Shown here in pieces: positions 3,287 to 8,252 of a DNA stretch of 32,007 nt. Positions within the stretch are counted from its first letter, which is position 1; every line of letters starts with the position of its first letter. Source of the DNA: a virus; UHGV virus genome UHGV-1480848. The stretch is one strand, 5' to 3'. Below the pieces are notes generated by a model. That model worked only from the letters and a program-made list of their open reading frames with translations, was not told where the DNA came from and did not search any database. The translations under genes and the position numbers were made by a program.

Positions 3287-3358
3287 ATAAAAAACAGTCC
3301 GCGGGAACGGACTGTTAAGTAAAGGAAACAAAGCTGATTTGAATAAACGGAGAATAAT

Positions 3359-4291
3359 ATGACCGATATTAATGATGTTTTCAACACAATTAATGCGCTG
3401 ATTACTGACGGTGTAAAAACACAAAGCGCTATCGCCAAAGAAGCTGGCGTGTCGGAGGCCACTCTTTCTGAACTTCGCAAAGGCCGTTACAAAGGCGATA
3501 CCGAAGGGATGCACAACAAATTACTGATGTGGCATCAGGGCTGGCAGAAAAGTCTGGAGTTGCCCGGCACCCCACAACTTGTGGAAACACAGACCCTGCG
3601 TGATTTGCGTGAACTTTTTCAGACAGTGCGTGTTATGGGGTGTATCAGCGTTCTGGTGGGTGTGCCGGGGGTAGGAAAAACCGTTGCGGCCCGTGAATAC
3701 AGTAACCGCGTATCTAATACCTGGATGGTAACCCTTTCCCCTGCACACTCAACGGTGACGGAATGTCTGCTGGAACTGGCAGACGCGCTGGGAATTGATA
3801 ACCCGCAAAGGAATAAAGGCGCGCTGACCCGTGCCATTCGCAAAAAACTGAACGGTACACGCGGTCTGGTGATTGTGGATGAAGCTGACCACCTGAGCAT
3901 TGACGGGCTGGAACAATTACGTGCCATTCAGGATGCCACCGGAGTCGGGATGGTATTGATTGGTAACCCCAGTCAGTTAGCCAAAGCCACACATCGGGGA
4001 ACGGATGACCTTGCACGTTTGTTCAGTCGTTTCGCCAGGACAAAGCAACTACGTAAAGCCAAAAAGGCTGACGTGGTGGCAATTGCGAAAGCCTGGGGCA
4101 TTGAGGGCGAAGATGAATTATCACTCATGCAGAGCATCGCGGAAAAGCCAGGCGCATTGCGTGTATTAACTCACACGCTGAATCAGGCGTGGCTGGCAGC
4201 CAGCGGGAAAGGCGTTCCTCTGTCCAAAGGCTACATAAAAGCGGCTTTTAAAGAGGTTTACAGCAACCCGAAATTACTGAACTGGTGGTAA
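3359..4291 (+). CDS. B: Transposition ATPase / target DNA activator, MuB-like (AAA+)
   Basis: 310 aa; N-terminal HTH; Walker A GVPGVGKT; Walker B LVIVDEADHL; follows A. Confidence 0.93.
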   Translation: MTDINDVFNTINALITDGVKTQSAIAKEAGVSEATLSELRKGRYKGDTEGMHNKLLMWHQGWQKSLELPGTPQLVETQTLRDLRELFQTVRVMGCISVLVGVPGVGKTVAAREYSNRVSNTWMVTLSPAHSTVTECLLELADALGIDNPQRNKGALTRAIRKKLNGTRGLVIVDEADHLSIDGLEQLRAIQDATGVGMVLIGNPSQLAKATHRGTDDLARLFSRFARTKQLRKAKKADVVAIAKAWGIEGEDELSLMQSIAEKPGALRVLTHTLNQAWLAASGKGVPLSKGYIKAAFKEVYSNPKLLNWW

Positions 4292-5795: not shown

Positions 5796-6320
5796 ATGGC
5801 TAAACCAGCAAAACGCATCAAAAGTGCCGCAGCGGCTTATGTGCCACAAAACCGCGATGCGGTGATTACCGATATTAAACGCATCGGGGATTTACAGCGC
5901 GAAGCATCACGTCTGGAAACGGAAATGAATGATGCCATCGCGGAAATTACGGAGAAATTTGCAGCCCGGATTGCACCGATTAAAACCGATATTGAAACCC
6001 TTTCAAAAGGCGTTCAGGGATGGTGTGAAGCGAACCGCGACGAACTGACGAACGGCGGCAAAGTGAAGACGGCGAATCTTGTCACCGGTGATGTATCGTG
6101 GCGGGTCCGTCCACCATCAGTAAGTATTCGTGGTATGGATGCAGTGATGGAAACGCTGGAGCGTCTTGGCCTGCAACGCTTTATTCGCACGAAGCAGGAA
6201 ATCAACAAGGAGGCGATTTTACTGGAGCCAAAAGCGGTCGCAGGTGTTGCCGGAATTACGGTTAAATCGGGAATTGAAGATTTTTCCATTATTCCGTTTG
6301 AACAGGAAGCCGGTATTTAA
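5796..6320 (+). CDS. gam: Host-nuclease inhibitor Gam (DNA-end-binding, Ku-like)
   Basis: 174 aa; sequence closely matches Mu Gam as I remember it (MAKPAKRIKSAAAAYVPQNRDAVITDIKRIGDLQREA...); CAGGAG RBS. Confidence 0.9.
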   Translation: MAKPAKRIKSAAAAYVPQNRDAVITDIKRIGDLQREASRLETEMNDAIAEITEKFAARIAPIKTDIETLSKGVQGWCEANRDELTNGGKVKTANLVTGDVSWRVRPPSVSIRGMDAVMETLERLGLQRFIRTKQEINKEAILLEPKAVAGVAGITVKSGIEDFSIIPFEQEAGI

Positions 6321-6418
6321 TACCACCATTAATATTTAATTAATTCACATTCTTTTAATTATGGCGCGATGCGTCAGGGGATTGCTCGCGCCTGAAACAT
6401 ATTACAGAGGAATAAAAC

Positions 6419-6958
6419 ATGGTTGATGCAAAAATTCTGAATGGTGTCAGCACATTATTACGGGCTTACGGACGCCTGACCTGTGGAGTTCTGGCTGAAA
6501 AAATGAATATGCTGCCCTCGTCAATGGTGTATTTCCTGCGTGATGCGGTTGATGCCGGAGTGCTCACCGAATGCAACGGATTTTATGACGTACCGCGTCC
6601 CCGTACAGAGCAGCCTGTAAGACGAAACGCAACTGAGCAGCCTGCTGTTGATGATGCGGTGTGGTGCAACTGGCGTCGCTCATTACCCTGGGTGGAAGGT
6701 AATACCATCCCTGCGCTGGCAAAAGAGTTTGCGACGGGCGTGCTGACCTGTGAGTCAGTCCACATTGTTGCTGAGGTGGATAACAGAATGTGCGAACAGG
6801 GAATGCCCCGTTTTGTGATGGCTTATATCGATATCCGGCTGGGGCGTTTTATTTGCAGTTCAAGCGCCTGGAATATCACCGACCATGTACTGCGTTATCT
6901 CATCATTGATTTTTCATCAGCACCGGGTGTGGTGCAGGAGGCTGGTTGTGAAATTTGA
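6419..6958 (+). CDS. Hypothetical protein with possible N-terminal winged-helix domain
   Basis: 179 aa; AGAGGA RBS; the winged-helix call for the N-terminal ~50 aa is inferred from its amphipathic pattern only. Confidence 0.5.
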   Translation: MVDAKILNGVSTLLRAYGRLTCGVLAEKMNMLPSSMVYFLRDAVDAGVLTECNGFYDVPRPRTEQPVRRNATEQPAVDDAVWCNWRRSLPWVEGNTIPALAKEFATGVLTCESVHIVAEVDNRMCEQGMPRFVMAYIDIRLGRFICSSSAWNITDHVLRYLIIDFSSAPGVVQEAGCEI

Positions 6959-7652
6959 AGACTGGGGTATTGATAAAAGTTGTGGCCGGGACGTCCTGGT
7001 GTACAAAAGCTGTAGCGTGATTGAAGGAGAAGATGCCTGGCAGGTTCTGGATATACTTCGTTCTGCTTTATGCAGAGCTGGCTATGTTACGCCAGCGTCA
7101 GTTAATGGCGGAACTGCCACTACCTGTATCAGAAAGCAACTTTATAGTTTTTATACAGCCTACAACCGATGGTTAAAGAATGGGGCAATGGAGACGGGCG
7201 ATGATGTATTTACCCGGGCTGCCGGATTATGTGCCAATGCTTACGATTATTTTGAATCAACCGGTGCAGACAGTGAAGCCGCATTAGAACAATTACATGC
7301 GGACTTTATCTCAGCAGGGCTGAATGAGAAATTGCCATTTAACCGGGACAGCAAACATTACAGAAACGAAAGCAAATTGGCCAGATGCCACCAGAATTCA
7401 GCACGTGTGGCATGGGTTGAAAAACACTGTATTAGTTCTGATTCAGAAATAACGGGGAAAAAGACAGTCGGTGAAACATCGTATTCGTGGCTGGGGAAAT
7501 TTACCACGGTGAAACAGGAATGCCCGACCTGCGGTAATGAATCCCCTGAATATCTGAAAGAGTGTCCCCATTGTGGCGGGCAGAAATGCAACCACTGTGA
7601 TATGGGCGATGACACGGCGTGCATGAATTGTGAAGGTGAACAGAATGAATAA
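6948..7652 (+). CDS. Hypothetical protein with C-terminal 4x CxxC zinc-ribbon
   Basis: GTG start at 6948 preceded by AGGAGG; C-terminus CPTCG..CPHCG..CNHC..CMNC. ORF-track start 6885 lies inside the upstream gene. Confidence 0.5.
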   Translation: MKFEDWGIDKSCGRDVLVYKSCSVIEGEDAWQVLDILRSALCRAGYVTPASVNGGTATTCIRKQLYSFYTAYNRWLKNGAMETGDDVFTRAAGLCANAYDYFESTGADSEAALEQLHADFISAGLNEKLPFNRDSKHYRNESKLARCHQNSARVAWVEKHCISSDSEITGKKTVGETSYSWLGKFTTVKQECPTCGNESPEYLKECPHCGGQKCNHCDMGDDTACMNCEGEQNE

Positions 7653-7953
7653 TGGCGTATTTACAAAATCCGAGGAACTGACAGCGTTGTTGACGGCGGC
7701 TGGTTTTCCTGAAGATGTGATCGGTAACTTTGTGGCGGCGGTATATGCCCCGTCTTATAACCGTGCAATTGATGAGGTCATGGCGTACCGACTCGGCATT
7801 GTTGCTGAGTCACTGAGTCCTCACTGGATTATTGAAAATCTCCGCGCTATTGCTGATGGCAACGATAAATCAGCAGCCGTTGCTGCACTGGATGTGTTAC
7901 GGCAAATGAGTCTGAAATTTTATCCTGAATTTATTCTGAGGGCCGCAAAATGA
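7645..7953 (+). CDS. Hypothetical early protein
   Basis: ATG 7645 overlaps the upstream stop by 8 nt; ends in ATGA overlap with the next gene. Confidence 0.45.
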   Translation: MNNGVFTKSEELTALLTAAGFPEDVIGNFVAAVYAPSYNRAIDEVMAYRLGIVAESLSPHWIIENLRAIADGNDKSAAVAALDVLRQMSLKFYPEFILRAAK

Positions 7954-8252
7954 ACAATGAAGATAAATTTACTCCCCTTAATATTGATAACGTCATGGCT
8001 GAAAAAAGGATGCTGGAACGTGTTCGCGCTATCGTTGAATATGGTATTAAGCATGAACTCACCGCCAGAGAAGTTCGTGACATTATCAACCGCGAAATGA
8101 ATCGTCTGGAAACATTAGTGGCACTGCAAAATGAAACAGCCCGCGAGGAGTACATCCGCCGCAGGCTGGGGTTATCAGACCAGGATATTGTTACTGACGC
8201 TCATGTGTTTGAGGCTTTTGAGATCCGTCAGCATCTGGGCCTTACGAACTGA
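7950..8252 (+). CDS. Hypothetical early protein
   Basis: 100 aa; ATGA start/stop overlap with the previous gene. Confidence 0.45.
   Translation: MNNEDKFTPLNIDNVMAEKRMLERVRAIVEYGIKHELTAREVRDIINREMNRLETLVALQNETAREEYIRRRLGLSDQDIVTDAHVFEAFEIRQHLGLTN

Follow-up and report, generated by a model that had tools for sequence, protein, structure and literature searches.

Which proteins are encoded directly downstream of gam in a Mu-like phage, and how did one of them come to end in a zinc ribbon? This question is raised by two adjacent open reading frames, ORF-A and ORF-B, in a stretch of 32,007 nucleotides of UHGV virus genome UHGV-1480848 (hereafter the window). Mu is a classic model phage and, to our knowledge, its gp11, gp12, and gp13 proteins have never been given a function. 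A preliminary description, made from the DNA sequence of the window, had placed two uncharacterized genes in the semi-essential early region and assigned a function to neither. The location is confirmed, since both genes lie at 6419-7652, directly downstream of gam (5796-6320). As for the assignment, we too found no function, but the description had missed that ORF-A is gp11 (PF25754), that the end of ORF-B is gp13, and that ORF-B is a chimera replacing gp12. We give the explanation developed below, anatomy and function taken together, a probability of roughly 55%. Its anatomical part, comprising the gene models, the gp11 and gp13 orthologies, the cassette replacement, and the in-frame fusion, is one of which we are highly confident.

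Results

ORF-B is best explained as an in-frame fusion onto gp13

ORF-B (6948..7652, plus strand) is predicted to encode a three-module chimera of 234 amino acids (aa) from a GTG start. On sequence grounds, GTG 6948 is a better start call than ATG 6885, which would give the longest form (255 aa). The GTG lies 6 nt past an AGGAGG Shine-Dalgarno sequence (6936..6941, plus strand), is conserved in three related loci (L005, L006, and L012), and is the residue at which independent gene calls begin in P0001, a protein 97% identical to ORF-B over its full length. The same AGGAGG precedes the start of gp12 at the equivalent position in Mu and, as judged from the sequence and the Mu junction, is common to whichever cassette follows gp11. 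The 234-aa start proposed in the preliminary description is thus upheld, and the zinc-ribbon ORF is kept by GTG 6948. ORF-B aligns from residue 1 to 231 with positions 1-231 of the phrog_6418 profile (E = 2.3e-163), and its start overlaps the ORF-A stop by 11 nt. When compared with the same three loci, ORF-A shows a ratio of nonsynonymous to synonymous substitution rates (dN/dS) of 0.14-0.18 and ORF-B one of 0.26-0.36, while the zinc part of ORF-B shows a dN of 0.02 against a dS of 0.21-0.35. Together with the conserved start and the invariant cysteines described below, these values show that ORF-A and ORF-B are real genes under purifying selection.

The origin of ORF-B becomes apparent when the window is aligned with Mu (L001) by blastn. 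A 532-bp cassette (6942..7473, plus strand) stands in for the 537-bp gp12 cassette of Mu (Mu 6947-7483), with both flanks 95-97% identical to Mu. The left junction falls directly past the shared Shine-Dalgarno sequence, and the right junction just before the codons for TSYSWLGKF. We considered whether the cassette might be a diverged gp12, which is ruled out by comparison of the first 175 residues of ORF-B with Mu gp12 (BLASTP E = 9; hhalign probability of 0.2%). Likewise, ORF-B gave no hit to phrog_2314, the family of Mu gp12. In Mu, the gp13 ATG overlaps the gp12 stop by 14 nt (ATGGAAAACAATAA, L001 3267-3280), with gp13 in the +1 frame, which looks like translational coupling. In the window, the cassette takes the place of the gp13 ATG and runs without a stop into the zinc module, in frame. 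The gp13 module is therefore made as the C terminus of a 234-aa fusion, and the window shows no other start, preceded by a Shine-Dalgarno sequence, from which a zinc-ribbon product could be made separately. ORF-B thus arose by non-homologous cassette exchange, in which the gp12 gene was swapped and its replacement fused in frame onto gp13.

The fused allele is found in 2 of 5426 complete E. coli genomes (chromosomes L005 and H57), in two Logan contigs (L006 and L007), and in 4 of the 66 IMG/VR loci in which we detected the zinc ribbon. Wherever it is found, it stands directly after gp11 and gp12 is missing. In most enterobacterial Mu-like loci, gp12 is present and gp13 follows it as a gene of its own, while in two loci the slot is empty, the C terminus of gp11 being joined to the last six codons of gp12. 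Since the zinc module is normally a free-standing gene of 46-63 aa, the fusion is a minority allele. The interval from gp11 to gemA is therefore a hot spot of recombination, at which at least three states occur: gp12, an empty slot, or a foreign cassette fused to gp13.

In more distant Mu-like prophages (L009, 4671-5816, and L034-L049), gp12 and the zinc ribbon are separated by about 1 kb that holds additional variable genes, among them a gp9-like gene of 183 aa. In L009, a 108-aa ORF is followed by a 271-aa fusion to the zinc module. The variable slot therefore reaches beyond gp12.

The three modules of ORF-B occur independently elsewhere

An exhaustive HMMER search of 1.84 billion representative proteins with ORF-B produced 549 matches at E <= 1e-3. 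These split into three non-overlapping classes that correspond to three modules, all of which occur independently elsewhere.

The C-terminal module is gp13. The region homologous to Mu gp13 spans aa 176-234 (7473..7652, plus strand) and, its own start codon being missing, exists as a fusion product only. The last ~56 residues of ORF-B (176-231) are 96-100% identical to gp13 of Mu, D108, and SfMu, and match phrog_5584 with an E of 4.6e-41. Within this region, the cysteine pattern and an alignment of 15 diverse homologues (A5) delineate an eight-cysteine module at aa 190-231 (7515..7640, plus strand), with CxxC pairs at C192/C195, C206/C209, C214/C217, and C225/C228. The pattern reads C-x2-C-G-N-x5-Y-x3-C-P-x-C-x3-K-C-x2-C-D-x-G-D-x3-C-x2-C. 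All eight cysteines are invariant in the 15 homologues, so the pattern is not due to chance, and ORF-B carries every invariant column of A5, including the conserved G, K, and D-x-G-D residues. The zinc-ribbon C terminus with four CxxC pairs noted in the preliminary description is therefore real, and the gp13 module probably binds two zinc ions. The module is strongly acidic, with a charge of about -8 over 44 residues. A possible relationship to the central cysteine-rich domain of DnaJ (PF00684) was rejected, as the match is sub-threshold (15.4 bits versus a cut-off of 32.7). All four CxxC pairs fall short of the full CxxCxGxG repeat, and two are directly followed by Gly (CxxCG).

HMMER matches to this module (176-231) are either stand-alone proteins of 48-70 aa or the C termini of unrelated proteins, and in P0011, P0175, P0180, P0199, and P0248 the ribbon follows unrelated N-terminal regions. 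In the IMG/VR scan, it is a free-standing gene of the size given above in most of the 66 loci, and at least 44 of the 66 have it flanked by Mu-type gam/gp11/gp12 on one side and gp14/gemA/mor on the other. A single divergent phage has it directly after gam. Ribbon-like matches were also found outside Mu-like phages, near primase, SNF2, integrase, or portal genes, but at 37-42% identity these may be convergent cysteine motifs and we did not count them as evidence. In Mu-like phages, the zinc module is the most conserved element of the gp12/gp13 slot.

The second module (mid domain), which extends from aa 58 to ~162-165 (7119..7433, plus strand) according to its invariant residues and the HMMER matches, is a widespread phage domain that occurs in hundreds of uncharacterized proteins. 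It accounts for about 130 of the best 150 matches, mostly as stand-alone proteins of 95-115 aa, sometimes in tandem and sometimes inside longer mosaics. AlphaFold2 (AF2) models it as an all-alpha domain of five helices with a predicted local distance difference test (pLDDT) score of 84-96. W75, G93-L94-C95, P130-F131, N150, and R153 are invariant or nearly so, and FY..Y..W, Y..E, and WV motifs are conserved. In BFVD, the domain is found in uncharacterized proteins only, from phages of Rhizobium, Achromobacter, Burkholderia, Delftia, Pectobacterium, Shigella, and E. coli. Its genomic settings are diverse. A Salmonella Mu-like prophage encodes the mid domain alone, as a 129-aa gene in the same relative position, with no zinc ribbon there. 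Phapecoctavirus-type lytic coliphages have multiple copies in clusters of small ORFs, and in lambdoid nin regions the domain is fused to DUF551. In P0143 (307 aa), its fusion partners are a PF04447 dATP/dGTP pyrophosphohydrolase domain and DUF7415, the former being, of all partners found, the sole one with a known biochemical activity. The mid domain has no relatives in the PDB by single-sequence or profile searches, and none in Pfam.

The first module is a small N-terminal segment (aa 1-52; 6948..7103, plus strand) common to P0181 and P0187 only (matching aa 1-52 and 1-45, respectively), two otherwise unrelated proteins.

At the level of the whole protein, ORF-B has a net charge of -8.8, and its PHROGs matches are to families of unknown function only. 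ORF-A and ORF-B match no anti-phage defense-system model of PADLOC at E <= 0.1, a set that covers defense systems rather than phage counter-defense proteins, and neither shows homology to structural or housekeeping proteins. A host-takeover or anti-defense role, as raised in the preliminary description for Mu-like early regions, would be a conjecture from genomic position.

ORF-A corresponds to Mu gp11

ORF-A (6419..6958, plus strand) encodes 179 aa between ATG 6419 and TGA 6958 and is preceded by AGAGGA (6406-6411). The protein is ~94% identical to P0012, the representative of the Mu gp11-type cluster. It matches Pfam PF25754 (Gp11_C) over residues 90-166 (E = 1.5e-39, 134.6 bits for a cut-off of 27) and phrog_1949 over residues 1-176 (E = 1.4e-105). 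It also sits between gam and the gp12/gp13 slot, as expected for the gp11 family. By these matches, ORF-A is identified as a full-length orthologue of Mu gp11. Prophages of Salmonella and E. coli often carry homologues with ~60% identity.

The AF2 model of gp11 (mean pLDDT of 66) has three parts. The N-terminal domain (aa 1-58; 6419..6592, plus strand) is acidic, with an isoelectric point (pI) of 4.9, and consists of three helices (4-17, 22-29, and 33-46) modeled with a pLDDT of ~65-73. It is followed by a disordered, Pro/Arg-rich linker (57-88) and by the alpha/beta Gp11_C domain (aa 89-166; 6683..6916, plus strand), for which the pLDDT rises to 80-92. In the model, the N terminus weakly resembles a winged-helix bundle, and the C terminus weakly resembles a Tudor/SH3-like barrel. 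As to the N-terminal winged helix that had been proposed as possible, the three-helix unit makes it plausible. However, no wing strands are modeled, no Pfam helix-turn-helix (HTH) family matches at E <= 1, and the pI is only 4.9, which leaves the winged helix unestablished. PDB searches with the single sequence and with a profile found no relatives of gp11.

The RefSeq label "DUF5420" was considered for gp11 and discarded, since it belongs to another gene that is inserted between gam and gp11 in SfMu-type phages. In SfMu (L002, NC_027382, 2212-3997), RefSeq numbering is shifted relative to Mu, so that "gp11" designates the DUF5420 gene and "gp12" the orthologue of Mu gp11. An unannotated segment further on (3301-3814) holds what appears to be a truncated Mu-gp12 ORF (122 aa, 3460-3828).

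The two genes lie in the long early operon of a Mu-like phage

Gene order and phage matches identify the window as the left end of a Mu-like (Muvirus) phage. It starts with a repressor on the minus strand, followed by ner, transposase A, B, kil, four small genes, and gam; after gam come ORF-A, ORF-B, two further small genes, gemA, mor, C, and lys. Between 5700 and 8300, it is 95-97% identical to Mu, D108, SfMu, and Yersinia Mu-like phages, although this identity covers just 55-80% of the length. A search for sigma-70-like promoters between 5700 and 8400 found none, which fits genes carried on the long early (Pe) transcript. In Mu, the "semi-essential" genes sit on the Pe transcript and their functions are "largely unknown" (PMC3820752). 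ORF-A and ORF-B are thus translationally coupled members of a long early operon, in the dispensable semi-essential region that extends from gam to gemA.

The interval between gam and gp11 contains a hairpin (6363..6392, plus strand) formed by GGCGCGA (6363-6369) and TCGCGCC (6386-6392), with no T-run on its 3' side; its RNA fold is not significant (z = -1.46). As determined by DNA comparison, an extra DUF5420 gene of ~550 bp is inserted a few bases past this hairpin, at 6399/6404, in SfMu, L005, L024, and L028-L030. The gam-gp11 interval is therefore a second insertion hot spot of the region.

Variation is also seen downstream of ORF-B. A gene at 7645-7953 (phrog_1988, ~102-107 aa) has no Mu counterpart but is found in SfMu and Yersinia Mu-like phages, and positions 7655-7946 of the window do not align to Mu. 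This gene is a further presence/absence polymorphism of the semi-essential region. Past gp14, there are ORFs on both strands (7931-8155 on the minus strand and 7950-8252 on the plus strand), the plus-strand ORF matching phrog_6075 end to end. Two Mu records conflict after gp14, NC_000929 having Mup15 on the minus strand and AF083977 having Mu_54 on the plus strand.

At the other end, the first kilobase of the window has a GC content of 38.7%, compared with ~50-58% elsewhere in the window. Matches to phage records cover only 72% of the left 5.7 kb, and the best of them is to Yersinia phage vB_YpM_5/6 (98.3%). The transposase is 695 aa long, against 662 aa for closely related MuA genes on contigs L006 and L007. 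The window seems to carry a distinct allele of the immunity and transposase N-terminal region.

Discussion

All the families involved here are already listed in PHROGs or Pfam as being of unknown function, and the fused architecture itself has an entry (phrog_6418). Our literature search on DUF5420, Mup11, Mup12, and Mup13 returned nothing relevant, the Mup terms leading to mouse MUP genes only, and a published study on the systematic discovery of anti-defense genes deals with an unrelated phage. Three of our findings are not recorded in the databases and literature that we searched: that the gp12 slot is a hot spot of exchange, one allele of which is fused, that gp13 is the conserved core of this slot and a promiscuous C-terminal module, and that the mid domain defines a large fold family confined to phages, for which no relative has a solved structure.

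What might these proteins do? In the reading that we favor, both would be acidic cytoplasmic accessory factors that bind proteins rather than nucleic acids. Their expression would probably fall early in the lytic cycle, and their targets would be proteins of the host or other proteins of the phage. Docking would probably fall to the zinc module, which would act autonomously, and the cassette domain would probably be an exchangeable unit that serves as an effector or binds a ligand. We hold this functional reading tentatively, at somewhat below even odds, and several observations weigh against it. Searches of Pfam, NCBIfam, PHROGs, PADLOC, PDB, and BFVD gave ORF-B no homologue with a known function. 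The acidity of the two proteins disfavors nucleic-acid binding, yet it is no proof of protein binding. The AF2 models of the first module and of the zinc module are of low confidence (pLDDT below 50 in both cases), so that the zinc stoichiometry and topology come from the cysteine pattern only. A word-indexed homologue search of ORF-B returned 11 and 17 matches, and with so few relatives the multiple sequence alignment available to AF2 is shallow outside the mid domain. Finally, because both main modules work alone elsewhere, their fusion may lack functional meaning.

This last point leads to the alternative that survives best, namely that the fusion is an incidental by-product of cassette exchange and adds nothing, the mid domain and the gp13 module each acting on a target of its own just as when they are separate genes. 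The distribution of the modules speaks for it, gp13 being free-standing in most of the 66 loci, and the mid domain standing alone in L008 and in lytic phages. So does the right junction, which falls exactly at the site of the gp13 start codon and Shine-Dalgarno sequence, where the zinc module would stay expressed in in-frame survivors only. The rarity of the allele, at the frequencies given above for E. coli genomes and IMG/VR loci, points the same way. However, the zinc module is joined to at least five other unrelated N-terminal regions, which suggests that tethering is tolerated and perhaps useful, and the fused zinc part is still under purifying selection. Neither the multiple fusions nor the purifying selection separates an incidental from a functional fusion, and we regard the incidental one as possible, if on balance doubtful. 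If no phenotype emerges, the locus would be an ordinary case of phage mosaicism.

The conservation of the mid domain suggests another possibility, in which this domain would be a small-molecule binder, such as a sponge for an immune signal, or a small enzyme, making ORF-B an anti-defense protein. A pocket could be formed by the invariant Arg, Asn, Glu, and aromatic residues, with an invariant Cys at the start of a helix. W75, G93-L94-C95, P130-F131, E141, N150, and R153 are indeed kept across sequences that are only 25-40% identical, and C95 is placed at the start of modeled helix 94-105. Moreover, the family is restricted to phages, some lytic ones having several copies, and its genes lie in accessory early regions. 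We nevertheless consider such an activity unlikely, as the domain resembles no known sponge or anti-defense family. A Cys-His dyad is also unlikely, because many members have Tyr, Trp, or Phe in place of the His beside the second Cys.

Could gp11 and the zinc-ribbon protein instead be DNA- or RNA-binding regulators of early/middle gene expression in Mu or of host genes, in the manner of Ner, GemA, Mor, and Com? The possible winged-helix-like fold of the gp11 N-terminal domain would be in keeping with this, as would the fact that zinc ribbons often bind nucleic acids and that the neighbors gp9, gemA, and mor are regulators. Set against this are the pI of the gp11 N-terminal domain together with its lack of a Pfam HTH hit, the negative charge of the zinc module, and the fact that Mu mutants with deletions in this region still form plaques, which make a regulatory role of this kind quite improbable.

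A more specific proposal, and the only functional lead, arises from a comparison of the zinc module with the N-terminal C4 finger of RadA/Sms, its best match when a profile of the module was searched against PDB sequences (E = 7e-4). The RadA finger and the first zinc site have an identical CxxC-x10-CxxC spacing and have G, SP, YL, and CPxCG in common, and hhalign places residues 1-60 of E. coli K-12 RadA in the same register (E = 2e-4). Since the C4 cysteines of RadA are required for its functional interaction with RecA (PMC5512693), and the gene adjoins gam, the gp13 module, conserved in the early region of most sampled Mu-like phages, might dock on RecA as a mimic of the RadA finger or a viral copy of it. 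In Mu, the module would act on its own, possibly competing with RadA at recombination or transposition intermediates, and in fusions it would deliver exchangeable N-terminal effectors to RecA filaments, either by tethering the N-terminal domain or by competing with RadA. Host recombination or branch migration would thus be modulated beside the RecBCD-handling gam, and the slot would be a modular, RecA-targeted host-takeover locus next to the RecBCD-directed Gam. However, the hhalign probability is only 47% at 25% identity to the host finger, BLASTP finds no match, short cysteine-rich motifs match generic zinc ribbons (eL40, NrdD, and rubrerythrin) at an E of 0.01-1, and the RecA-like helicase domain with its KNRFG motif and the Lon-like P domain are absent from the 234 aa of ORF-B, so that we consider RadA mimicry very unlikely.

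Comparison with known systems

Accessory early functions directed at host proteins exist in other transposable phages, such as Tip of Pseudomonas phage D3112 and Aqs1 of DMS3. In Mu itself, Kil, Gam, and GemA are small, dispensable early proteins from a similar region that act on host proteins (PMC3820752). They have no sequence or structural relationship to ORF-A or ORF-B, and the analogy is one of genomic position only. With the RadA/Sms C4 finger, the first half of the zinc module has a marginal similarity, a resemblance rather than membership, and the second zinc site of ORF-B has no RadA counterpart. The proteins of phrog_2510/VOG7392 type and the DUF551 proteins of nin regions are closer, since they share the domain at aa 58-162 with up to 68% identity and, like ORF-B, are found in non-essential early regions. 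They differ in that the domain occurs alone, in tandem, or fused to DUF551 or pyrophosphohydrolase, not to the zinc module, and they are themselves uncharacterized.

The closest comparison is with Mu. ORF-A shares its position after gam and its domain layout with Mu gp11 (Mup11, formerly E10-E12; PF25754), from which it differs only in the last ~10 residues because the cassette junction falls there. Mu gp12 (Mup12, formerly E13; PF26885, phrog_2314) occupies the same slot as the ORF-B cassette, behind the same Shine-Dalgarno sequence and with a nearly equal length (537 versus 532 bp), but the two have no detectable sequence similarity, as befits a non-homologous replacement. Mu gp13 (Mup13, formerly E14; phrog_5584), with 60 aa and eight cysteines, lies upstream of gp14 and gemA just as the corresponding part of ORF-B does. 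It is a separate gene in Mu, whereas in the window the same module forms the C terminus of a 234-aa protein.

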